A DNA stretch of 64,000 nucleotides from a virus: IMG/VR virus record IMGVR_UViG_3300020456_000005; one strand, 5' to 3'. Position numbers and translations under genes: made by a program. How positions within the stretch are numbered: the first letter of the stretch is position 1; each line of letters opens with the position of its first letter. Positions 275-50,265 of the stretch are shown here, piece by piece. Below the pieces are notes generated by a model. The model was not told where the DNA came from. It did no database searches and worked only from the letters and a program-made list of their open reading frames with translations.

Positions 275-3200
275 ATGCTTAAGACTGCTAATAAAATCTC
301 ATTTCTAGTTGAGTCTCAGTTACCAGACTTCATTAATGAAGAGTACGAACTTTTTAGTAAGTTTGTAAGGAAGTACTATGAGCAATTAGAGTTACAGGGT
401 CAACCTGTTGATATTATCACGAATCTTGAAACATATCGTGATATAGATTTTTATGAGAAAAATGTATTAAAGCAGTCAACTACTATTACTGGCAACCTAT
501 CCAGTAATGCAGATGTTATTAACGTAGTAGACGCTGCATCATTTCCAAAAAGTGGATATATCAAAATTGATGATGAAATTTGTTTCTATGGTAATAGAAC
601 AGAGACTTCATTCTTAGAAGTAAGTCGTGGTGTTAGTGGAAACACAACATTAGGAGATCTTTACAAATCTAGTACATTTGTAACTACTCAGTCATCTACT
701 CATGTTAATGGGTCAACTGTACAGAATATCAGTAATTTGTTTCTGTATGCATTAGTCAAAAGTTTTGAAGATCAATACCTTGCAGATTTTCCAGAAGCGT
801 ATTTAAAAGAAGGTGTAGACAAGAGAACTCTTATTAAGAATATCTCTTCTTTTTACAGATCAAAGGGAACTGACAATTCAATCAAATTTCTATTCAAATG
901 TTTGGTTGAAGAGGATCCAAATCCAGAAATTGCATATCCAAGAGATTTTACATTAAAATCATCTGAATCTAATTGGATTCAATCATATGCACTAAGAGTA
1001 AAGATTATTAGTGGCGAACCAAATAATTTAATTGGTAAAAGAATTGTTCAAAACGTAGAAGGTAACTATGCTTCTGCTGTTGTAGATAACGTTAAGTATA
1101 GCGGTACATACGATGGAGAGGCATTGTATGACATTATCTTAAATGAGCAAAGTGTTAATGGAACATTTGAGAAATCGTTAAAAACTGTATTGACTAGTCC
1201 AATTGTTGGATCTTTGACAGTTGGTGATAGAGTAAATGTATTCTCTACTATGGGGTGGGGAAAGAAAGGATCATTCTCTATAGGATTAGAGACATTTACG
1301 TTTGAAGAGAAAAATGTAAATCAATTTATAATTAAGACAAGATCTGGTACGGGATCTCATCAATCAGGAGAATCTGTTACTTATAACCTAGAAGTAACTT
1401 CTGATGATGTCAAATTACAAGTATTTGGAATTTTATATGGATTACAGAATGTTATTGAATCTCCATATTCAAATGTTGGTGAAAGTGTAGAAATTTCTGA
1501 ATCTGGATTCCTAACAGATGATATCAGAATTAACGACACTCAAAATAATCTAAGATGGGTTGATAGCACTGGCGTTGCAGCAATTGCAGACCTTAATCCT
1601 AATGTTTCTGCCATCTTTGAAGATGGTGAAGGATATTACATTGCTTCATCAGGATTTCCATCACATGCTATTGGAACTCTTCCATCTGATGCTCAAGATC
1701 AGAAACTATTAAAGATTATTAGAAAGCATCCTATACAGACTACAGAAGTCTATAAGACATTATATCGTGATATTGGTGTTGCTGTCAATGGTATTCCATT
1801 CTTAAGTTATAAAGACGAAGAAGTAGTTAATAGTGGTGCATTACAATCTGTAGCGATTACATCTAGAGGTGCTGGTTATAATAAACCTCCATTTGTGTTA
1901 ATTGATGGTGTTTCAGATTTAGCAAGAACTAAACTAGCAGGTCAAGTAGTTGAATCAGTTGTTATTGATACTCCTGGTAATTACACTGCAGTTCCTACTA
2001 TAGAAATATTGTCTGGTAGGAATGCTCAGGCAAGAGCAGTTGTTACTAATGGTGAAATTACTAGTATTGTAGTTGAGAATGAAGGTGAGTACTATTCCTC
2101 AGCACCAGAAGTAAGAATTACTGATTCTGCAGGTAGAGGTAGATTTGCAACATATCGTGCAGTTGTTACTACTGCAGGAACTATTGACAGATTTGAAAAA
2201 ATCAATGGTGGTAGTCTATATTCTCAAGAAAATGTACAGGTAGACATTATTGCGGTAGGATCTGGTGCTACTGGAACCGCATCTATTAGACAATGGAGAA
2301 AAGATAAGTTTTATAAGAATGAATCTTCTCTTGATTCTGAAAATGGTTATTTCTTCCCAAATTACGTAACTAACCGTGGTTCTGGGTATGCATACTATGC
2401 TGCACCATCAACTATTAGATCTGGTGATACTGGAGTAAATCATTCTCCTATTATTGGTTTTGCATATGATGGTAATCCAATCTATGGTCCTTTTGGACAT
2501 CAAAACCCACTAGATTCTCAAAGTCTCATTGTGAGAATGACTAGTAGTTATAGTAAAAACAATGTAAGATCTGGTGGTCCATTAGTTAGTCAATACCCTA
2601 TCGGAACATTTATTGATGACTATACTTTTGTTGCTGAGTATGGAAGTCTGGATCAAAACAATGGACGCTATTGCGTAACACCAGATTATCCAGAAGGAAC
2701 TTATGCATATTTTGTAACTTTAGATAATCAGAATGATCCTGTATTCCCATATATTTTAGGTGATAACTATTATTCTCTACCAGTTGATTCTAATTACAAT
2801 TCAGAACTTTCTCAGGATGATATTCCTAAAACTGCAAGAAGACTTAGAACATCTGGTATTACTAGAAATGGTCAGTCTGCATTAGCAAAAATTGCAGATG
2901 TAAAACGAGGTAGTATTAGTTCTGTTTCTATTACTGGTAGCACTAGTAATTTCTCTGTTGGATCTGAGTTAATTATTGATGATTCGGATACTGATGGTTT
3001 TGGAGCAAGTGCAGAAGTCTCTTCAGTAAAGGGAAGACAAGTATCTAGTATTGAATCGCAAGATATTAAATCTCTGTTTATTGAGTTAAAAACAACTGCT
3101 TATTTGTTTGATGGTGATATAATCACTCAATCTAACACTGGAGCTACTGGTCAGATTGTAGGAGATGTATTTTCATCTACCAAATTTGCTTTACGTAATG

Positions 3201-6200
3201 TAATTGGTTCTTTTAATAGTACAGATGTACTATCTTCTAGTACAAAGGTTATTAGTCTATTCCTGAATCAAAACTCTTCATATACTAAAGGGGCTACATT
3301 AGAATTTACAGATGGTCTTGGTGCTCCAGTAGCATCTGGCGAAGTACTAGAAACCACAACAAAACAGAACACTGTAAAGATCAAAGTACTTAATGGTTCT
3401 TTTGTTCCATCAGATACATTCTTCTTGAGAAGTTCTGATTTAATCAATACTACTGGATCTAAAATATTAACAACTATAGAACTGAGTGAAGGACTAGTTA
3501 TTTTTGATTTAAAAGATAATGTTGCTATTTTAAAGACAGCAGATGCTCATGGCGTTGCTGAGACTGATATTATTACTATTGATATTAATCCAGATGATGC
3601 AACAACTACTACAACATATTATGTAAGATCCCGAGTATACCAAGAAGCAGTCCTGAAAACGCCTGGTATCACTAGAGTTTTGACGGACGATGGAATTGGA
3701 AAAGTTAGTATATTAAATGGTGGCGAAGATTATACTGCTAACACATATAATGATATTGCGTTATCTGGAGGTTCTGGATCTGGAGCAAAAGCAAATGTTG
3801 TTGTCTCAGCAGAAGGTAGCGTAACATCTATTACATTAACTGATAAAGGTACTGGATATCAATTATTTGATATTTTAACTATCGGTGATACAGCTCTTAG
3901 TAAGACAGATACTACTACACCTACCGTACAGATCAATATTGATCATATTGGTCTTGCTTTATCTGAGACAGTTGTAAATCTTGACAGTAATGTAGGTATT
4001 AATCCTGGTGATAAATTACGTATTGGAAATGAAATTATTACTGTTCTTTCTAGAGTAGTTAATTCAACTACATCAATTAATGTATCTAGAGGAACTGTTC
4101 CATTAAATCATTTTAATGGTGCTTCGGTATCATCTTACAATGCTGGTTATGTTATTTCTGTGGGTACTACAGTAGGAGATGCTAATATCCTTTCTTATAA
4201 TCCTAATACACAAAAAATTGTATTTACATATGATTATGGACAAACAACTAGTACAATTAATCCAATTGATTTAAGTACAGTATTTTTTGATCAAGAACAG
4301 AGACTTGCAGAGGTTGTTTCTGTAGAAGACCCTATTCGCTGTTTTGAATTTTCTTTAGATAATAACTCTTTTACAAGAAATCAATTAATTGATATTAAAG
4401 AAGGATATCGCTACATCTTTGATAGTTCCCATTCATCAATGAGTGATGTTGAGTTTGCTCTTTCACCTAGTAAGAATTTAAATCTAAAAACATTAGAGGC
4501 AATTAGAGGAAATGATACCCTTGATGTTAAATTTGGATTTGGACCAAGAATTGCTACTAACAATTATAACACAAAAGTAGAATCTCCATTTAAAAAGTAT
4601 TTTTACTTTGATAGGTTAAACAATGTTAATTCTGAAGAGGCATTTATCAATGTAATTAATGATCCTTTACAGGGAGATAAGACTGCACTTTATATTACAA
4701 GTGACAGTATTGTTTATGAAACTGGTATACCTGCTACCAATGATGGAAGTGGCACAATCAATTATATTTCACGATCATTATTCTCAGTTGGAGAAATTAA
4801 TGACATTAGGGTAATCAATATTGGTAATGATTATAAGAAAGTTCCTTCTGTATTAGGAATCATACCAACAAATAAAGCTACAGCAACATCCACTATTTCT
4901 AATGGTGAAGTTGTTGGAGTATCTGTAAAAACTAATGGAAGTGGATATTCCAAACCTATTGTTTATGTTGATGGAGATGCGAAATTAAAGGCGATTATAG
5001 ATCAAGGTAAAATCACAGGTATTCAAATTATCAGTTCTGGTTCTGGATATACTACTGCTCCTGAAGTTAAGATTGCAGAATCTGATGTTCAGTGTCTTAT
5101 TAATAGTGATGGCATTGGAGTTCCTAGAAATGTTAATGTCTTTAATCCAGGCGGATCTTTCCATGGAGATGATACTTTATCATCTACATTTAGATCTAAC
5201 TATATTCTATCACTATCTAATTTTGATCCCGATTCTTTTGCGATTGGAGAGACTATCGTTCAAAGGATTAATGGTGTAGAAGTAGCAAGAGCTAGAATAA
5301 CATTTTTTAGATCTGGTAGATTAAGTGTTGATAGAGTATCTGGAGTTTTTAGGAAGAATAAAGAAATTCAAGGTCTTGCTAGAAATAAAACTGCAATTTT
5401 AAAAAATATTAGTTATACTGAGTTTTCTCCTCAAATTACTACTTACTACGATAATCAAGGATATTTCCAATCTGACAGTGGAAAAGTTAGTGATCAAAAC
5501 CAAAGACTCACAGATTCATTCTATTATCAAGATTATTCATATCTGGTTAAATCAAAGACTTCTATTGATACTTGGAGATCATTAATCAAGTCAACAACAC
5601 ATCCTGCTGGATTTAAAGTTTTTGGTGAGGTATTACTTGAAACTTCATCAAATGCTGCGATGAATAGTAATAGTACATTTACTTCTACAAGTATTGTACA
5701 AGTTTGGAATCCAGATGTAAATAAAGTCTCTGTAATCAGCACTAAGAAAAATATTACTCAAAGTATTGTTCTCATGGATACTTTGAAAGTTGAAAGAGGC
5801 GTTGGTTCTGTATCCAAAGAAACATTTAATACTTCTGAAATTATTTCTGGTGAAGTTTATCTCACAGAATCTTTTGATGGTAATTTTGGAGATAAAGGAA
5901 ATCTACAAGGAAAAACGGTTTTCAATATTGTTGATGTAAATGGTAATAGCATCATACCTTATAATGAGCAGGCATTAACAATTACTCTTGATGGTATATT
6001 ACAAGAACCTGGTATTGCATACACCGTAAATAACGATAAGATTACTTTTGCTGACCCACCTATCGGACCAACTACTAAAGATGGTCAATCTGTTCCTGGT
6101 GTTTTATTCTATGGAAGAAGATTCCAATTTAAGTCAGACACTCTAAATCAGAAATATCTTAAAAAGATTAAAAATATTTTCCAGCGTTCTGGTACATGGA

Positions 6201-9200
6201 TAGACGCTGCAAATCAAATTAATCAAAATAGAAGGTTTATACAATCTGAAACTCTAGGTTATATTAAATCAAGATATACATCAATTCCATGGACTAATTT
6301 AAGTGAAAAGTGTTATCGTGACATTGGTCTCATATTAGACGCATTAGAACATGACTTAAGATTTGGTGGCAATCAGAAAACTTTATTTGCCGTTGAAAAA
6401 TATTTCAATGCTGGAGTTCTTGATTATATTTCTGGAGAACTAGAGGCAACTATTGATGCATTTGATTATGCAGTACGTTTATGTAAACTAGCAGCTAGAA
6501 ATTGGGATTACTCAGATCGTCAAGTATCTTGGACTCCAGGTACTAATAAAGTTACGTTATCTAATACTGACAATGTGGCAATTGGTATGAAGGTAAGTGC
6601 TGGAAGAGCATTCCCTGCAGGAACTATCATTACTGACATCATTGATAAGAGAACTATTCAGGTAAGTAATGAATCTGTAGACATAACACCAGATCCATCT
6701 GGTAATGCAGATATGTCGTTTATTTGGAGTGGATTAAATGTTGGTACTTACTTTGATGCATCAACATTAATTCATAAAAATAAATCAAGTATGATTACAT
6801 CTACAATTGATGCAATCAATACAAAGTATCTTGCTCTTGCTGCTACTAACTATGATACAAAGTGTGCTAGAGATCTTGGGTTATTAGTTGATGCTGTAGT
6901 TTATAGTTTGAAGTACGGCGGCAATAGAAAAATTGTAGAATTTGCTGAAAGTTATTTTATTGATGGAGATCTTAATTTCATTAAGAATGAACTTAATGAA
7001 ACAGTCTATGCACATAAGGTATTGCGTGACCTAATGATTGCTGCAATGAGAAATCAGGGTGATGTAACAGATGATAGTATTCGTATTGATTCATCATCAC
7101 CAGCATGTGCTGAGGTTGCTAGTTCCATTACAACTTATATTGATATTATTGAATCTATTTTAGAAGGTGGTCCTGATAGAGTAGATACTGTTGAACAAAA
7201 TGCAAACTCTACAGGATATTGGACTACGTTTATTTCGTATTCAAATTATAATATTCTTCCAGATCCTTTACTACTAACTGAATTAAAAGAATGTGAAGAA
7301 GTAGCTTCTGCATTAGATTCACTATTTGAAAATGTAAGGCAAACATTAACTACTGGTCCAGAAACTGCGTCTCTATCATATCCAGACTATATTAATGGAG
7401 AAAATACAATATTTGAATTGTATTATGAAGATGGTACACCTGTTGACACTGAAGCAAACGAAAATCTGTTTATTGCACTAAGTGGTGTATTGCAACATGA
7501 TCCTGCGTACACTATTGATAGAACATCTGTACCAAACAAGGTTGTGTTTGATACTCCTCCTATTTGGGGACAAGGAGAGAATACGAAAACTGTTCAGGAA
7601 CCTCTAGCAGTTGAAAAATTCTTTGCACATGGAGTAGGTAACTATCTCAGATGTGAAATTGAAAAGTCTGGTATATTAGATGGTTCTGGGGGACCATTCC
7701 TAATTTTAAATTCTAGTAATAAAAAAGTTCAAACTGTTGATGATCCTAGGTTTGCTTTTGTATTCATAGATGGTATTCTTCAGCGTGATGGTGTTTCTTA
7801 TACAATCACAGGACCTGCAATTAGATTTACTAGAAAAATCTTTAGAGAAAACAATATTGAAATTATACTATTATATGGTAGAGATATTGACCAGACTGTA
7901 ACTCTATTTGATTTCCAGAGAAATACTTATTATAATGAAATTAAATTAACTTGTGATGCAGGATCACCAAATAATTTTATTGATTGGGTTTCTTGGTTCA
8001 ATACTTCATATGATAAATTCCAAGTTGCTTATCAAAAGGTTGGAAATGTTAAGAAGTTTATTGGTAATCTAAAATCCTATACTACAACTGATCAAACCTT
8101 AGTTATTACATTAGCTGGAAATAATCCTGATGTAGATGCTAGTAATATTTTCTTTGCAGGAGATTCTAATTTTTCGGATGAGTATGAGTTATCTGGAACT
8201 ACGAATACTGTAGAAGTTGTTAGAGATTCTGATAACGACTATAGAATGCAAAGAAACTCTGGTAATTGGTTATATGGAACTCCACGTGCAGATGAGTCTT
8301 TCTATGAAAGAAAACGTCTCCTTGCTAATTTAAATGCAAAAGATGTTATTAGAATTGATGGTGAGAAAGAGTTTAGAACTATTAACGAGTTACCAAGATA
8401 CACAAATCCTAAAAATTATAATGCTGGAGAGGATGTATCAAATACTTTCTTTGGTTCTGTAACTACCACTAATTACAATGGTGATGTAAGTGGTGTAGGT
8501 CTTAGTGTTACCTGTGAAATTGAAAATGGTAGCGTTTCTGCATTATTGTGGAATAAAAAGGATTTACAACTGTTATATGATGAAGGAATTATACAACCAA
8601 CTACGGCATATGGTTATGACTCTCCTCCTATTTTACATTTCATTCCTGTAAATCAAGAGGGTGGAGGAGCAAGAGCGGAAGTAGTTGTATCTAATGGTCA
8701 AATTATTGATATTGTACTAACTAAAAAAGGATCTGGATATACTGAACCACCAAGAGTAGTTACTGCAAGGTCTTACGATATAATTAAAGGTACTGGTAGA
8801 AAAATTGATACATTCCATACTCTTGGAATTGGAACTCAAATTGGTCAGAGTTCTCCTGTTGCTGTAGCAACATTTATTGATAAACTCAAAGGAGTTGATT
8901 TACCAGTTGTTACTATTGATCCTTCCGTAACAATTCCATCTGGATATGATGTAACGCTAATAATTCAAAAGAGTATTGATACTGCTCCTCTGTTCAATGT
9001 CTCTCGTGAATATAGATTCTTCAATCCATTTGCAGGATCTTCTTCTATTGCGGGACCTACCACACAGGTAGATGCGGACATTATGCTTATTATTGAACCT
9101 AAATTAGTATCAGATACTATTGTAGTTTCACTTGAAATTGATATAACTGAGTATCTTGAGGTTGGATTCTCTATGTGGTCTCCAGATCTTGAGAACTTAA

Positions 9201-9628
9201 CGTTCTTCAATAATATTAATCATTGGGAGAATAGTATATACATGGATCTTGGAGATATTGTTGCTCCAAGTGGTGATCCAGTGTCGGAAGTTCAACTTGC
9301 TGAACTAGAACCATACGAAATTACTTCTGACGGTTCTTCTTCTTCCGCGTATCCATTTAACCTAGGATACTCCTCAATTAACTATTATATGTCTCAACTA
9401 GATACTTCAGATCTACCTAATATAGGCAATCCTTCGTATCTTGCTACTGGTGAGGTAGTCTATGCAAATACAGCAAGATTCCCGTCATCAGGAACCATTT
9501 TGATTGGTGGTGAAAAGATTTCCTACACCTCTAAGATGGCGGATCGTTTTCTTAATTGCACAAGAGGCGCGGACGGGTCACCCGTTTCATCGCATACAGT
9601 AGGAGACTACTTAAGAAACGCCCTATAA
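275..9628 (+). CDS. gp7: Baseplate wedge initiator gp7, enlarged cyanophage form (3117 aa)
   Basis: N-terminal ISFLVESQLPDFI..Y..F..F...YYE and FYRSKGT..SIKFLF motifs, an internal QDYSYLVKS...THPAGFKVFGE motif, and position between gp6 and gp8. It also holds a YHYH-like region, GxGY..P repeats and helical C-x-R-D modules. Confidence 0.85.
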   Translation: MLKTANKISFLVESQLPDFINEEYELFSKFVRKYYEQLELQGQPVDIITNLETYRDIDFYEKNVLKQSTTITGNLSSNADVINVVDAASFPKSGYIKIDDEICFYGNRTETSFLEVSRGVSGNTTLGDLYKSSTFVTTQSSTHVNGSTVQNISNLFLYALVKSFEDQYLADFPEAYLKEGVDKRTLIKNISSFYRSKGTDNSIKFLFKCLVEEDPNPEIAYPRDFTLKSSESNWIQSYALRVKIISGEPNNLIGKRIVQNVEGNYASAVVDNVKYSGTYDGEALYDIILNEQSVNGTFEKSLKTVLTSPIVGSLTVGDRVNVFSTMGWGKKGSFSIGLETFTFEEKNVNQFIIKTRSGTGSHQSGESVTYNLEVTSDDVKLQVFGILYGLQNVIESPYSNVGESVEISESGFLTDDIRINDTQNNLRWVDSTGVAAIADLNPNVSAIFEDGEGYYIASSGFPSHAIGTLPSDAQDQKLLKIIRKHPIQTTEVYKTLYRDIGVAVNGIPFLSYKDEEVVNSGALQSVAITSRGAGYNKPPFVLIDGVSDLARTKLAGQVVESVVIDTPGNYTAVPTIEILSGRNAQARAVVTNGEITSIVVENEGEYYSSAPEVRITDSAGRGRFATYRAVVTTAGTIDRFEKINGGSLYSQENVQVDIIAVGSGATGTASIRQWRKDKFYKNESSLDSENGYFFPNYVTNRGSGYAYYAAPSTIRSGDTGVNHSPIIGFAYDGNPIYGPFGHQNPLDSQSLIVRMTSSYSKNNVRSGGPLVSQYPIGTFIDDYTFVAEYGSLDQNNGRYCVTPDYPEGTYAYFVTLDNQNDPVFPYILGDNYYSLPVDSNYNSELSQDDIPKTARRLRTSGITRNGQSALAKIADVKRGSISSVSITGSTSNFSVGSELIIDDSDTDGFGASAEVSSVKGRQVSSIESQDIKSLFIELKTTAYLFDGDIITQSNTGATGQIVGDVFSSTKFALRNVIGSFNSTDVLSSSTKVISLFLNQNSSYTKGATLEFTDGLGAPVASGEVLETTTKQNTVKIKVLNGSFVPSDTFFLRSSDLINTTGSKILTTIELSEGLVIFDLKDNVAILKTADAHGVAETDIITIDINPDDATTTTTYYVRSRVYQEAVLKTPGITRVLTDDGIGKVSILNGGEDYTANTYNDIALSGGSGSGAKANVVVSAEGSVTSITLTDKGTGYQLFDILTIGDTALSKTDTTTPTVQINIDHIGLALSETVVNLDSNVGINPGDKLRIGNEIITVLSRVVNSTTSINVSRGTVPLNHFNGASVSSYNAGYVISVGTTVGDANILSYNPNTQKIVFTYDYGQTTSTINPIDLSTVFFDQEQRLAEVVSVEDPIRCFEFSLDNNSFTRNQLIDIKEGYRYIFDSSHSSMSDVEFALSPSKNLNLKTLEAIRGNDTLDVKFGFGPRIATNNYNTKVESPFKKYFYFDRLNNVNSEEAFINVINDPLQGDKTALYITSDSIVYETGIPATNDGSGTINYISRSLFSVGEINDIRVINIGNDYKKVPSVLGIIPTNKATATSTISNGEVVGVSVKTNGSGYSKPIVYVDGDAKLKAIIDQGKITGIQIISSGSGYTTAPEVKIAESDVQCLINSDGIGVPRNVNVFNPGGSFHGDDTLSSTFRSNYILSLSNFDPDSFAIGETIVQRINGVEVARARITFFRSGRLSVDRVSGVFRKNKEIQGLARNKTAILKNISYTEFSPQITTYYDNQGYFQSDSGKVSDQNQRLTDSFYYQDYSYLVKSKTSIDTWRSLIKSTTHPAGFKVFGEVLLETSSNAAMNSNSTFTSTSIVQVWNPDVNKVSVISTKKNITQSIVLMDTLKVERGVGSVSKETFNTSEIISGEVYLTESFDGNFGDKGNLQGKTVFNIVDVNGNSIIPYNEQALTITLDGILQEPGIAYTVNNDKITFADPPIGPTTKDGQSVPGVLFYGRRFQFKSDTLNQKYLKKIKNIFQRSGTWIDAANQINQNRRFIQSETLGYIKSRYTSIPWTNLSEKCYRDIGLILDALEHDLRFGGNQKTLFAVEKYFNAGVLDYISGELEATIDAFDYAVRLCKLAARNWDYSDRQVSWTPGTNKVTLSNTDNVAIGMKVSAGRAFPAGTIITDIIDKRTIQVSNESVDITPDPSGNADMSFIWSGLNVGTYFDASTLIHKNKSSMITSTIDAINTKYLALAATNYDTKCARDLGLLVDAVVYSLKYGGNRKIVEFAESYFIDGDLNFIKNELNETVYAHKVLRDLMIAAMRNQGDVTDDSIRIDSSSPACAEVASSITTYIDIIESILEGGPDRVDTVEQNANSTGYWTTFISYSNYNILPDPLLLTELKECEEVASALDSLFENVRQTLTTGPETASLSYPDYINGENTIFELYYEDGTPVDTEANENLFIALSGVLQHDPAYTIDRTSVPNKVVFDTPPIWGQGENTKTVQEPLAVEKFFAHGVGNYLRCEIEKSGILDGSGGPFLILNSSNKKVQTVDDPRFAFVFIDGILQRDGVSYTITGPAIRFTRKIFRENNIEIILLYGRDIDQTVTLFDFQRNTYYNEIKLTCDAGSPNNFIDWVSWFNTSYDKFQVAYQKVGNVKKFIGNLKSYTTTDQTLVITLAGNNPDVDASNIFFAGDSNFSDEYELSGTTNTVEVVRDSDNDYRMQRNSGNWLYGTPRADESFYERKRLLANLNAKDVIRIDGEKEFRTINELPRYTNPKNYNAGEDVSNTFFGSVTTTNYNGDVSGVGLSVTCEIENGSVSALLWNKKDLQLLYDEGIIQPTTAYGYDSPPILHFIPVNQEGGGARAEVVVSNGQIIDIVLTKKGSGYTEPPRVVTARSYDIIKGTGRKIDTFHTLGIGTQIGQSSPVAVATFIDKLKGVDLPVVTIDPSVTIPSGYDVTLIIQKSIDTAPLFNVSREYRFFNPFAGSSSIAGPTTQVDADIMLIIEPKLVSDTIVVSLEIDITEYLEVGFSMWSPDLENLTFFNNINHWENSIYMDLGDIVAPSGDPVSEVQLAELEPYEITSDGSSSSAYPFNLGYSSINYYMSQLDTSDLPNIGNPSYLATGEVVYANTARFPSSGTILIGGEKISYTSKMADRFLNCTRGADGSPVSSHTVGDYLRNAL

Positions 9629-45573: not shown

Positions 45574-48500
45574 ATGGCAGATTTTAGACTCGGCAGACTG
45601 AAGTTTAAGTGGCGCGGTGATTGGGCGGCGTCTACTGCATATGTCATTGACGATATTGTCAAGTACGGTGCAAATGCGTACGTCTGTACCACCAATCACA
45701 CTTCCGCAACTTCGGAGAATTCTTTTTATTCTTCCGACTTAGGGAATTGGGATCTTCATACAGAAGGTCTTAGAAATCGTGGTGACTATCAAACCACTGG
45801 TGTTTGGTACGCTCTAAACGATCTTGTCAAGTATGGCAATACCGTATATCGTGCTACTACGGCACATGTCGGTCCTGCTACCTTTGACTTCACTAAGTGG
45901 GCAGTATATTCTGAAGGTCTGAACTTTGAAGATACTTGGTCCTCCGCAACTGTTTACCAGAAAGGTGACATTGTAACATTTGGTGGTTACACCTACGTAG
46001 CTCAGCAAAACTCTACGAACGTAGCACCAAATACGGACGAACTATATTGGAAGGTTCTTACGACTGGTTTCTCACCACAAGGTGACTTCGTTGATTCTGA
46101 AGTATACGAGCCAGGTAACCTTGTTAAGTATGGTGGTAATACTTACTCTTGTAAAGTAACCACTACTCCCGAGTCATACGCAATTGATAGCATCAGCGGC
46201 GACGGTAGCGAAGTAACCGTTGTATTTGATGTTGCTCAACCTACCGCACCATTTGGTGTTGGTGATCTAGTAACCCTTGCTGGTACATCTGCTGCTCAGT
46301 ATAACACTTCTTTCCGTGTTAAGGCATGTACAACTACTGGGTTTACAATTGAAAGCACTGAAACTGCTGGCGCTACTGGTGGTACTATTGCTTATATCCC
46401 TTATCCAACTAACACAAGATTCTGGGATCTAGTTCTTGAAGGTCTGAACTGGAACGCTGCATGGAACAATGCTAGCGTTTATCAACTAGGTGATGTCGTT
46501 AACAGAAACGGTAACTCCTACGTTTGTATTAGATCCAATACTACTGGTGCAGCAACTGCTCCAGAACTTGATACCAACGCAGTCTATTGGAACTATGTCT
46601 CCCAAGGTGGTGACGCTGCTCAGGTACTACAAGAAACTGGTGACCTACTTTATCAATCTGCTTCAGGTATTAACAGAATTGCACTACCTGCAAACCCAAA
46701 TACTGCAACTGCAGCGGAACTCCGCGAAGCAAGTGGTCAAATCCTAACTGTTGGTGGTTCCCCAATTCTACCAAGATGGGAAAGCAACAACGTATCTAAT
46801 GCTGTTTATTACGTAACCAAAGAAGGTTCTGATTCAAACAGTGGTAGATCAATCTCCAGAGCATTTGGTTCACTAAAATATGCTTGCGATCACATTGCAG
46901 GACTAACTGGTGCTGATGCTGCTTCTGCATCAAACCCAATTGCAATCTATATTAAAGCAGGTGTCTATGAAGAGACACTTCCTATTGTAGTTCCTGAGTT
47001 TGTATCTCTTGTAGGTGACAACCTAAGAACTTCAATGATTAAGCCTAAGTCAGGCTTTAATTCTGAAACTCAAAATATTACACTAGCAACCGCTGCTGAT
47101 AATTTCCAGTATGGTGATATTGTTTTCAACGGTGCTAGAACTAAGAGTGCTAAGGTCCTTGAGTCCGAATCAAATGTAATCACAATCCAACAGGTTACTG
47201 GTGGTGCGTGGAATAGTGCAGATACGTGGACAAATACTCTTTCCAACTCATCTGCTGATGCTGCAAATTTACTTGTAAGCAACAAAGATTTCCTTGCACA
47301 TTATGCATACTATAAGTTTGTTCTTGATCAATCTGCTAATCCAACTGGTGCTGGTGCAGACATCAGAGCAAGACTTGCAGAATTTGTCGTAGAACTTGCT
47401 GCTCAAGTAAGATCTGGTGGTAACGATAGAGTTCATGCATTTGCTGTAGATGTAATTGCTGGCGGTGCTAATGCTATTACTACTGTTGGTTCGGAAGATA
47501 AGACATTACTTGATACTCTCCGTGATGCTGCTGTTAAAGTAGTTAAAAATGAAACTGTAGGAGCTGTTGCTGGTAATACAGAAAACCAAGTTATTGACAA
47601 TACAATTACTCAAGATCCTGCTTTCTGTGCAACTCAAACTGCCGCAGTTGCAACTTTATGTGACTTAGCTGCAGGTTCAATCCTTGCTGGATCTCCTACT
47701 ACAACAGTTAATCAAAATGCTTATATTGCAATAACAACTGCTGCTGGTATTCCTAACCAGGAATCCACAATGTTCTTCCTGTCTTCACACAATACCGTTA
47801 AGGATATGGTATTTGAAGGCATGTCTGGATTCGTTCCTTATGGTCCAGATGATAAGAACACTGATCATGGAACTCTCAAAGGTGTCTACTTCAGACTTAA
47901 TCCAAATTCCCCAATTACCAAGTCACCTTATGTACAGAACTGTGCCGCTATCGGTGGTGCTGCTGTAGGTGTCGTTCTTGATGGTGGTACTCACGAGAAG
48001 TATGACAATGATACAGTCAAGTCAAACAAATCAATGGTGTTTGACTCCTACACCCAGATCCTTGATGGTGGTATTGGTTTCTATGTAACCAGAGGTGCTG
48101 CAACTGAAATTGTTTCTTCCTTCACATACTATTGTCACATTTCTTACACCTCTACACGAGGCGGTAGAATTCGTGCTGTTTCTGGTAACTCTTCTTACGG
48201 TAAGTATGGTTGCGTATCTAGAGGATTTGACGCTAATGAAGTTACCGTTGATGGTAAGGTCAAGGGTGGTCGCTTAGAACTCAACCCTGCTGCTGCTAAA
48301 GATGGCGGATTTACTCCTGGTGAGAGAATCATCGGTGGTACTTCAGGTGCAGTTGGTGAGTTGATCAGTGATCAATCTCCTTCCAACTACCTCTATTACT
48401 TCCCAGTTAAGGGAACCTTCGTACAGAATGAAGTTGTCACTGGACAAACTTCATCTGCATATGTAACTCTCGTTAATAACACTGATGCAGTCACTGGACA

Positions 48501-50265
48501 GAAAGGTTTCGTACTTACTGTTGTTGATCTTGCTGCTGGTCCTGACCAAGGTGGTTCTGTTGAATTGCAGGACAACGGAGTTAATGATGACGCTGGTTCA
48601 TACGTTATCTCCAACTCCAGCTACACTGCTCCAGATGGTAGAGGTTCTCTAACCGTCAACAGAGGTGCTCTAGGATCTACTGCAGCAGCTCATGATGGTA
48701 CTACATCTATTACACACTATCCAGAGAACGCAACTGCTGTAACAACTACATTGAGTGGTGCTATCAACTCAACCTCAACAGGTACTGAAGCAGCACCATA
48801 CATCATGGGTGTTGATAGTGTTACTGGAATGATTGCAAATGGTTACGTTGTTGTTAATCAGGAACTCTTTAAGGTTGTAGCAATTATCGCTGCAGACCAG
48901 ATTGAGGTTGCTAGAGCACAAGACGGAACGATTGCACAAAACCACGCACAAGGCGATGCGGTAACAATTTATCAGACAAAGGTTACTTCTCAGGATGAAC
49001 TGATTGAAGATACAACTGATGCTCAATTGGCCCTTCGTGTTAAGCGTGCAGACCTCAACTTTGAGGCAAATGATTATGTCAAGATTGACAATGAATTCTT
49101 CCTTATCTCTGCAGTAACTCCTGATACTACTGGTATTACTACACTTCTCTTCTCTGATGAGAAAGTAATTGCTGCAGGCGATGGACAAGACTTTAAGATT
49201 CGCTATCGTTATTCACAGGTCAGACTAACTGCTCACGACTTCCTAGACGTTGGTACTGGAAGCAAAGCAAATACTAATTGGCCTGGTCTACCTCTATCAC
49301 CAAACGTTCCTTCATACGAGACTGATGAATCCCGTCCAGGTCGTGTTTACTACGTATCCACGGACCAAGATGGTAACTTCGCAGTTGGTAAGTACTTCAG
49401 AGTTGAACAGGCAACTGGTAAAGCAACTCTAGACGCTTCCGCGTTTGACCTATCTGGTCTATCAAGTTTGAGACTTGGTTCTATCGGTGCTCAGTTGGGT
49501 GCTGCTATTAACGAGTTCTCAACTGACGGCACGATGGCGCAGAACAGTAACGAGAAAGTTCCTACTCAGGCAGCAGTCGTTACTTACATCAGCAATCTAA
49601 GCGGTGTTGATTCTGACTTTAGCATTGGTGGTAACCTCACTGTTAAGGGAACTACAACAACAGTTTCTTCTGTTACTGTTACTTCAAAAGACCGTAACAT
49701 TGAACTTGGTACTGTTGCTTCTGGATCTTTCACTGGTGATATTGCTGCTGGTTCAACTGATATTACAAACGTTAGTGACACCACAAACCTCGCACCAGGA
49801 GTTGCTATTTCACTAACCAGTGGTGGTGGCACAGTTACCATGTCTGGTTCTTATACAGTATCTTCTATCTCAGGAACTACAGTTACTCTAAGTGCTGTAT
49901 TCCAAGGTAGTGGTAGTGCAACTGGTGCATCATTCACTGCTGGTGGACCTTCAGATGTCACTGGCGACGGTGGTGGTATTACTGTAAAAGCTGGTAACGA
50001 CAAGTCTATTTCTTGGTCTGCATCTGGTGATAAGTGGGTGCTTTCCGAGCACGTTGATATTCCTGCTTCTAAGGAATACCACATTGATGGAACCTCTGTT
50101 CTATCTGCAACTGCTGTACTAGGTAAGTCATTTGACAATGATACAACCCTTGGCGCTGGATCTGCGGATGATGCATCTGTTCCTACTCAATTAGCAGTTA
50201 AGACATACGTTGACAGTCAAACTCAAGAAGTAACTGCTATCGGTTATTTCATTGCAGCAATGTGA
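45574..50265 (+). CDS. Long tail fibre/tailspike with CBM5/12-like repeats and a pectin-lyase-like beta-helix (1563 aa)
   Basis: Five W....Y...D.V.YG...Y repeats; VYYVTKEGSD.N.G, I.IKAG.YEE.LPI.VP..VSLVGD.LR and SPYVQNC beta-helix motifs; VPTQ.AV.TY fibre motifs. Confidence 0.8.
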   Translation: MADFRLGRLKFKWRGDWAASTAYVIDDIVKYGANAYVCTTNHTSATSENSFYSSDLGNWDLHTEGLRNRGDYQTTGVWYALNDLVKYGNTVYRATTAHVGPATFDFTKWAVYSEGLNFEDTWSSATVYQKGDIVTFGGYTYVAQQNSTNVAPNTDELYWKVLTTGFSPQGDFVDSEVYEPGNLVKYGGNTYSCKVTTTPESYAIDSISGDGSEVTVVFDVAQPTAPFGVGDLVTLAGTSAAQYNTSFRVKACTTTGFTIESTETAGATGGTIAYIPYPTNTRFWDLVLEGLNWNAAWNNASVYQLGDVVNRNGNSYVCIRSNTTGAATAPELDTNAVYWNYVSQGGDAAQVLQETGDLLYQSASGINRIALPANPNTATAAELREASGQILTVGGSPILPRWESNNVSNAVYYVTKEGSDSNSGRSISRAFGSLKYACDHIAGLTGADAASASNPIAIYIKAGVYEETLPIVVPEFVSLVGDNLRTSMIKPKSGFNSETQNITLATAADNFQYGDIVFNGARTKSAKVLESESNVITIQQVTGGAWNSADTWTNTLSNSSADAANLLVSNKDFLAHYAYYKFVLDQSANPTGAGADIRARLAEFVVELAAQVRSGGNDRVHAFAVDVIAGGANAITTVGSEDKTLLDTLRDAAVKVVKNETVGAVAGNTENQVIDNTITQDPAFCATQTAAVATLCDLAAGSILAGSPTTTVNQNAYIAITTAAGIPNQESTMFFLSSHNTVKDMVFEGMSGFVPYGPDDKNTDHGTLKGVYFRLNPNSPITKSPYVQNCAAIGGAAVGVVLDGGTHEKYDNDTVKSNKSMVFDSYTQILDGGIGFYVTRGAATEIVSSFTYYCHISYTSTRGGRIRAVSGNSSYGKYGCVSRGFDANEVTVDGKVKGGRLELNPAAAKDGGFTPGERIIGGTSGAVGELISDQSPSNYLYYFPVKGTFVQNEVVTGQTSSAYVTLVNNTDAVTGQKGFVLTVVDLAAGPDQGGSVELQDNGVNDDAGSYVISNSSYTAPDGRGSLTVNRGALGSTAAAHDGTTSITHYPENATAVTTTLSGAINSTSTGTEAAPYIMGVDSVTGMIANGYVVVNQELFKVVAIIAADQIEVARAQDGTIAQNHAQGDAVTIYQTKVTSQDELIEDTTDAQLALRVKRADLNFEANDYVKIDNEFFLISAVTPDTTGITTLLFSDEKVIAAGDGQDFKIRYRYSQVRLTAHDFLDVGTGSKANTNWPGLPLSPNVPSYETDESRPGRVYYVSTDQDGNFAVGKYFRVEQATGKATLDASAFDLSGLSSLRLGSIGAQLGAAINEFSTDGTMAQNSNEKVPTQAAVVTYISNLSGVDSDFSIGGNLTVKGTTTTVSSVTVTSKDRNIELGTVASGSFTGDIAAGSTDITNVSDTTNLAPGVAISLTSGGGTVTMSGSYTVSSISGTTVTLSAVFQGSGSATGASFTAGGPSDVTGDGGGITVKAGNDKSISWSASGDKWVLSEHVDIPASKEYHIDGTSVLSATAVLGKSFDNDTTLGAGSADDASVPTQLAVKTYVDSQTQEVTAIGYFIAAM

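Follow-up and report, generated by a model that had tools for sequence, protein, structure and literature searches.

A phycobiliprotein-derived module in a cyanomyovirus tail fibre and the fate of its bilin-attachment residues

Phycobiliprotein beta subunits (CpcB, CpeB and the beta chains of cryptophyte phycoerythrin and phycocyanin; PF00502) are free antenna subunits of 170 amino acids (aa), and their Cys153/155 is the site served by T-type lyases. In phycocyanin, the bilin at this beta-155 site has its pyrrole nitrogens hydrogen-bonded by Asp39, with Asn35 and Thr149 as further contacts, and in phycobiliproteins the adjacent alpha subunit secures its ring D (PMC6614406). Here we analyse a relative of these subunits located in a virion protein, a helical insert in the 1563-aa tail fibre encoded by IMG/VR virus record IMGVR_UViG_3300020456_000005, a stretch of 64,000 nucleotides referred to below as the window. 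The window is a structural-gene block of a T4-like cyanomyovirus with every gene on the + strand, and among sequenced phages its sole DNA-level relatives are Synechococcus phages. A full-text search of the literature found no account of phycobiliprotein-like domains in the virions of cyanophages.

A globin-type module derived from a phycobiliprotein beta subunit

The insert is an old domain that descends from the beta subunit of a phycobiliprotein. Its phycobiliprotein-like nature had been proposed in a sequence-only reading of the window, and the profile searches and the predicted fold now agree on it. The gene and the module are located as follows:

45574..50265, + strand: tail-fibre gene, 1563 aa (open reading frame list, translation, PHROG and Pfam matches)
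47233..47721, + strand: phycobiliprotein-like globin-fold module, residues ~554–716 (profile envelope 554–709)

When an alignment of 26 modules (A1) was searched as a profile against 177,635 PDB sequences, phycobiliproteins made up nearly all of the 60 matches listed, the best being phycoerythrin beta with an expected value (E) of 2.5e-4. Positions 5–64 of A1 fell on phycobiliprotein residues 34–100 in register, with the helix B motif D-A-x-N-x-x-x-x-N on Asp39/Asn42/Asn47 and C-x-x-D on Cys82/Asp85. Scanned singly, 7 of the 26 modules matched PF00502 (best E 1e-5); one module, from a related genome, scored above the family cut-off (24.2 bits vs 22.2), and three database relatives have faint precomputed matches to the same family. 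Using the phycocyanin genes of Acaryochloris marina plasmid pREB3 for comparison, hhalign aligned A1 with CpcB over 132 columns (CpcB 29–171) with E 5e-6 and a probability of 86%. The insert searched alone gave only DUF6712 in Pfam, below threshold, and only chance matches to sugar-binding proteins in a phmmer search of the PDB (E 0.07); it belongs to PF00502 transitively, by way of the other modules and of the fold.

AlphaFold, run on A1, gave a six-helix model with a predicted local distance difference test score (pLDDT) of 91 and a predicted template modelling score (pTM) of 0.88. The top 48 Foldseek matches of this model were all phycobiliprotein beta chains, with template modelling (TM) scores up to 0.71. 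VIA-align, which is independent of Foldseek, also placed phycoerythrin beta first (Z 15.7; root mean square deviation 3.3 over 147 residues, model 1–153 on chain 23–184), followed by allophycocyanin and ApcE and then by globin sensors at ~12. In a second AlphaFold model, made for residues 400–900 with a fibre-only alignment, the helical domain again matched phycobiliprotein beta chains (TMt 0.64).

In these models the module is a predicted globin-type core that runs from helix B to helix H and lacks the X/Y hairpin, the element by which alpha and beta subunits pair. The alignments begin at phycobiliprotein residues 23–35, and the module directly follows a small beta subdomain. As the hairpin is missing, alpha-beta pairing is not expected, and since the module also lies inside a fibre protein, its assembly into (alpha-beta)3 rings or phycobilisome rods is unlikely. 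The module and the beta subunits share the same B-E-F-G-H order, in which a long G-H loop leads to the last helix, and Asp39, Asn42, Asn47, Gly100 and Cys153/155 all have aligned counterparts in the module. The two differ in that Ile and Arg stand in the module where the beta subunits have Cys82 and Asp85, and in that the module has family-specific invariant residues (N617 and N659) and is embedded in a large virion fibre.

Two other described groups resemble the module in fold. The core-membrane linker ApcE (VIA-align Z 12.1–13.8) likewise contains a phycobiliprotein-fold domain within a large multidomain protein, but it is a host protein that keeps the N-terminal helices and forms part of the allophycocyanin core, and its autocatalytic bilin attachment uses a different cysteine. 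The globins of globin-coupled sensors (DosC, HemAT and GsGCS) have a similar helical core (VIA-align Z 9–12) and bind haem via a proximal His, whereas the fibre-type module has no conserved His, and no sequence similarity was detected between the two. A haem globin was rejected as an identity for the module, as no His column is at least 70% conserved in 87 fibre-type modules.

Residues at the two bilin sites

Conservation was evaluated in a set of 87 non-redundant fibre orthologue modules (the fibre type), 33–82% identical to that of the window, and in a wider set of 172 non-redundant modules. In these alignments, the peripheral beta-155-type site, represented by D562 and C685, is strictly kept in the fibre subfamily, and the central site has been lost as a pair. 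The residue pairs given by hhalign were D562-Asp39, N558-Asn35, I597-Cys82, R600-Asp85 and C685-Cys153, and the corresponding positions in the window are:

47257..47259, + strand: D562, equivalent of beta-Asp39 (hhalign and HMMER alignments)
47362..47373, + strand: I597-R600, the lost Cys82-x-x-Asp85 site, C-x-R-D or C-x-D-D elsewhere (A1 and hhalign)
47416..47424, + strand: G-G-N motif, G615-N617 (invariant columns in A1)
47626..47628, + strand: C685, equivalent of beta-Cys153/155, in the first turn of the last helix (hhalign onto CpcB Cys153)

The sequence-only reading had claimed that this copy keeps an Asp39/Cys155-like pair, and the profile-profile alignment bears this out, with D562 on Asp39 and C685 on Cys153. 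The Asp39-equivalent residue is Asp in 87/87 fibre-type modules and in 163/164 across all modules; the C685-equivalent residue is Cys in 87/87 and 126/128, respectively, and C685 is the only invariant column in the C-terminal half. Residues D562, N570, G615, N617, Q672 and C685 are 100% conserved in the fibre type. G615, which aligns with phycobiliprotein Gly100, is found in 159/160 of the wider set and N617 in 161/161.

It had also been noted that the fibre copy has lost C-x-R-D, which is correct: I597 and R600 occupy the positions of Cys82 and Asp85, and among the proteins of the window this motif is found only at C2013 and C2197 of the gp7-like baseplate protein (see below), with none in the fibre. 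Position 597 is V or I in all 87 fibre-type modules, and the Asp85 position is R or K. In the 172 modules, Cys82 is accompanied by Asp85 in 62/62 cases, and modules without Cys82 also lack Asp85 in 95/99; a single loss, in the fibre clade, accounts for most of these absences.

A C685 that was poorly conserved or tied up in a disulfide had been named in advance as evidence to the contrary. Within the domain neither was found, as the residue is invariant and 65/87 fibre-type modules contain no cysteine besides it. An intradomain disulfide was therefore rejected as the reason for the conservation of this Cys. The insert string originally quoted has D562 and C685 in place, but the second Cys in it is C696, which is not conserved.

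Insertion in the fibre and the wider module family

The fibre matches phrog_9851, tail fiber protein, with E 0, and consists of CBM_5_12 repeats at the N-terminus, a beta-rich middle in which the insert lies, and a long fibre part at the C-terminus. The carbohydrate-binding CBM_5_12 repeats number five and span residues 1–330 (window 45574–46560; Pfam E 1.3e-21). Unlike the window fibre, some fibre orthologues have a Peptidase_S74 chaperone domain at their end. A total of 407 fibre orthologues were found, and among the best 120 of these the module is present in 120/120.

Along the fibre, GDNLRTSMIKP starts at residue 481, DAANLLVSNKD at 562 and MFFLSSHNT at 733, and the Cys of CATQTAAV is residue 685. 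The insert had been placed at 47250–47695, that is residues 560–707, consistent with the profile envelope. However, the 250 aa between the flanking motifs form two units, the helical module and, directly before it, a small beta domain:

47047..47232, + strand: small beta subdomain, residues ~492–553 (strands at residues 97–154 of the AlphaFold model of residues 400–900)

By alignment, the small beta subdomain is also present in the orthologues of S-CAM1 and P-SSM2. The helical module is absent from the fibre orthologues of S-CAM1, S-CAM3 and P-SSM2 (tblastn with residues 400–900, and alignment); in S-CAM1 and S-CAM3, tblastn aligned both flanks, with 48% identity, and the fibres are ~165 aa shorter. 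By these comparisons, the helical module proper is an insertion in the fibre lineage of the window, placed after the small beta subdomain. Of the earlier proposal of an insertion into a pectin-lyase-like beta-helix, the insertion stands, but its point is after the beta subdomain and the beta-helix assignment of the flanks is weakly supported, the flanks bearing a weak resemblance to the beta-helix enzymes and tailspikes BT_1002 (E 2.4e-4), K1 lyase and LKA1 gp49. The P-SSM2 fibre (L163; NC_006883, 228248–230353) has other extra segments in the same region, one of ~60 aa preceding the small beta subdomain and one of ~65 aa past an F-x-P motif; insertions seem to be tolerated in this stretch of the fibre.

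Related modules are present in the gp7-like baseplate protein of the window (3117 aa, 275..9628):

6194..6514, + strand: gp7-like module 1, N-terminal part, residues 1974–2080, with C2013-Y-R-D, interrupted by module 2
6746..7156, + strand: gp7-like module 2, residues 2158–2294, with C2197-A-R-D and a second Cys in P-A-C-A-E-V
7265..7348, + strand: gp7-like closing helix of module 1, residues ~2331–2358, with C2340, after the nested module 2

Searched against 1.84 billion representative proteins, fibre residues 541–730 gave 21 matches with E < 1e-3, all of them virion-type proteins that are giant or fragmentary, several carrying copies in tandem. A profile built from these 21 matches, with no gp7 sequence included, detected both gp7 modules (search setting Z = 1e5), with domain E 5e-9 for module 1 (1974–2076) and 1e-16 for module 2 (2159–2294); in a second profile round the values were 3e-24 and 3e-35. 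The claim that the fibre insert is homologous to the gp7 modules therefore holds. Module 1 also has a sub-threshold Pfam match to PF00502 (E 0.016), and an alignment with phycocyanin alpha was obtained for it as well. The closing helix was assigned from the orthologous stretch of a related genome, which aligns with profile positions 106–159, and the nesting of module 2 inside module 1 is supported by gp7 orthologues with one unbroken module (L018–L026). The gp7-like protein further contains a YHYH domain (PF14240, E 8e-31) at residues 669–817, as do the gp7 orthologues P0016 and P0021.

The insert had been counted as the third module of the phage, which is an undercount: a complete IMG/VR relative (192,818 bp), whose gp7 is 89% identical, carries 8 modules in 3 virion proteins. 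Five of these lie in a protein of ~3333–3336 aa, followed by lone closing helices, two lie in gp7 together with a closing helix, and one lies in a 1564-aa fibre orthologue. The count of three reflects the edge of the window rather than the phage. In the giant protein of this relative (L144:2966–12967; G001 94965–104966), four module N-parts end before the last helix and are followed by one complete module and then by three separate closing helices with the cysteine motif, and the giant proteins of other relatives (L031 P0003; L148–L160) have six to eight module copies. From their order, the modules of the giant proteins look as if they were nested, each inside the G-H loop of the next.

The module family is scattered across the baseplate and fibre proteins of cyanomyoviruses, and in BFVD many cyanophages have tail and structural proteins with the same fold, none of these proteins being labelled phycobiliprotein. 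The two-cysteine modules (those of the window gp7, with C2013/C2197, of the giant protein of the relative, and of the S-PM2, P-HM2 and S-CAM1 giants) belong to the same family as the fibre module (domain E 1e-16 to 1e-60) and share with it the Asp39 equivalent, the G-G-N motif and the last-helix Cys. In contrast, they keep C-x-[DR]-D, found in 0/87 of the fibre type, and are tandem or nested, whereas the fibre module occurs once, always at the same position. A tree of 36 modules places the fibre type in a single long-branch clade distinct from the two-cysteine modules; this clade stands next to the C-x-D-D array type and not next to the gp7 modules of the window, which fits one old insertion and not recent shuffling. 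The module had been suggested to be mobile between virion proteins; by the tree, the fibre copy is not a recent derivative of the phage's own gp7 modules.

The S-SKS1 tail fibre (L177; NC_020851, 15531–18317; 928 aa) has a single two-cysteine module at residues 177–340, with the motifs N-C-A-D-D and S-C-A-N-V, and has a beta-rich region in common with the window fibre. In S-B43 (MN018232, 137343–137789), a module match lies in a 2184-aa frame with one in-frame TAA, which could be a sequencing error or indicate a split gene or pseudogene. Genes for zwf that are 76–79% identical to that of the phage were seen on short contigs in bins labelled as an archaeon and as Rhodopirellula (L054, L055); these contigs are probably mis-binned cyanophage DNA.

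Lyase genes, light and the possible role of the module

In the related genome, two CpeT-family genes are located 1.2 and 3.2 kb upstream of the largest module-bearing gene, in the order cpeT, three small genes, cpeT, 2OG-Fe(II) oxygenase and giant module-bearing gene:

L144:13108–16616 (G001), same strand as the giant gene: two CpeT-family genes (161 and 162 aa) and a 203-aa 2OG-Fe(II) oxygenase, directly upstream of the giant gene

The same cpeT-to-giant-gene order was found in all 13 of the IMG/VR loci that extend far enough to be informative, and in S-PM2 and S-CAM1. In L031, P0003 likewise has the 2OG-Fe(II) oxygenase as its neighbour on the upstream side. Among 16 genomes sampled for co-occurrence, 8 have both modules and cpeT, 3 have modules without cpeT, none has cpeT without modules, and 5 (P-SSM2, P-SSM5, S-SSM7, Sf-FS3 and S-SRM01) have neither. 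Phages P-HM1, P-HM2 and S-PM2 need light for adsorption, independently of host photosynthesis, whereas P-SSM2 adsorbs in the dark (PMC6628666). The three light-dependent phages have modules and P-SSM2 has none, which amounts to three or four related data points and not to a test.

The reading that we tentatively favour, at somewhat less than an even chance, is that a bilin is attached at C685 of the fibre module by a T-type lyase. It draws on the homology and fold, on the conserved D562 and C685, on the link between modules and cpeT and on the light-dependent adsorption; for the part of the lyase, the support is circumstantial and comes from the co-occurrence and synteny of cpeT. Late in infection, this lyase, the phage CpeT where one is encoded and otherwise that of the host, would link one phycoerythrobilin or phycocyanobilin of the host to C685 by a thioether bond, and D562 would hold its pyrrole nitrogens. 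In each fibre subunit, a helical knob exposed next to the beta-rich shaft would then bear one pigment. Adsorption might plausibly be gated in this way, through a change of the fibre or baseplate in response to light; alternatively, the pigment may have a stabilising, structural role.

Several observations weigh against attachment of a bilin at C685: i) the fibre module of the window has no PF00502 match up to E 1, a profile of the fibre type only is not significant against CpcB (hhalign probability 1%, P 0.05), and a profile of the C-terminal half (A2) has no PDB match up to E 10, and since these last two fail to reach the phycobiliproteins, the equivalence with Cys155 is transitive, depending on the whole-family alignment and the fold topology, ii) according to hhalign, the G-H loop of the module is ~12 residues longer than that of CpcB, iii) the module has neither an alpha partner nor the X/Y helices, iv) the invariant G-G-N, N570 and N659 and the nested arrays would also suit a purely architectural role, v) no bilin reductase or haem oxygenase was found in the related genome, vi) S-SKS1, S-B43 and ACG-2014f have modules but no cpeT, and the co-occurrence of the two has a one-sided Fisher P of 0.013 that is uncorrected for relatedness and becomes ~0.09 when collapsed to genera, and vii) no reports of pigmented cyanophage particles, or of bilin on module proteins, were found in the literature.

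An alternative is that a captured fragment of an ancestral host phycobiliprotein gene was reused, free of pigment, as a compact helical spacer, decoration or adhesin in fibres and baseplates; folding, or contacts to adjacent domains, would then be what preserves D562, C685, G-G-N and the conserved asparagines. We regard this account as a serious possibility, though short of probable. It agrees with the absence of the X/Y helices and of the alpha partner that completes the beta-155 pocket, with the phages that have modules but no cpeT and with the lack of any pigmented virion in the literature searched; in addition, the tandem and nested arrays in giant structural proteins resemble other phage decoration domains, the invariant G-G-N, N570 and N659 are not phycobiliprotein hallmarks, and the central site was lost several times while the domain was retained. 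However, packing alone hardly explains a Cys that is invariant throughout the fibre type and nearly so across all modules at 15–30% overall identity. Both conserved Cys and the partner Asp fall exactly on the two bilin sites of the beta subunit, and each pair is kept or lost together. Moreover, cpeT is found only in module-bearing phages (8/8) and adjoins the main module gene in three genera.

It is improbable, in our estimate, that C685 serves some other thiol chemistry, such as an intermolecular disulfide or covalent link to a virion protein or host surface molecule, or a role as ligand of a metal or another tetrapyrrole. The residue is single and invariant, at a helix start following a long conserved loop (Q672, T679, D681), and globin-coupled sensors, at Z ~12, are the next-best structural matches, all of which would be compatible with such a role. 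Nevertheless, without a His at least 70% conserved in the fibre type, haem ligation of the globin-sensor kind is unlikely, one Cys per subunit cannot close a symmetric three-fold disulfide, and the residue co-conserved with C685 is the Asp that binds the bilin nitrogens in phycobiliproteins. That a generic helical bundle matches by convergence or chance, with motif matches of no evolutionary meaning, is highly improbable. Sequence identity to phycobiliproteins is 11–20%, the expected values are modest (2.5e-4 in the profile search and 6e-3 in Foldseek), and middling Z scores are common for helical models; against these stand the in-register phycobiliprotein matches that nearly fill the list of 60 from the PDB, the independent matching of PF00502 by 7 modules, with the cut-off passed in one, the hhalign E of 5e-6 over 132 columns, and the structural rankings, in which the top 48 Foldseek matches are all beta chains and VIA-align gives Z 15.7 compared with ~12 for the globin sensors.

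Extending bilin attachment at C685 to the whole particle, the virion itself might act as a photoreceptor, with phage CpeT loading one bilin on C685 of each fibre subunit and others on the equivalent cysteines of the baseplate and giant-fibre modules, seven in number, and with light altering the conformation of fibre or baseplate. We consider this rather unlikely, but if true, it would provide the long-sought cause of light-dependent adsorption in cyanomyoviruses as well as the real substrate of phage CpeT, with the fibre-type module as a naturally occurring single-site variant for proving it.

Why many cyanomyoviruses carry cpeT, and why S-PM2, P-HM1 and P-HM2 attach only in light, are long-open questions. 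Virion domains derived from phycobiliproteins and keeping bilin-attachment residues offer one concrete, testable answer to both. As the fibre module has exactly one candidate site, the one of the T-type lyases, and usually one Cys in total, a single domain with a C-to-A control could decide whether pigment is bound. Even if no pigment is bound, the module would still represent an unusual reuse of a host antenna protein as virion architecture.

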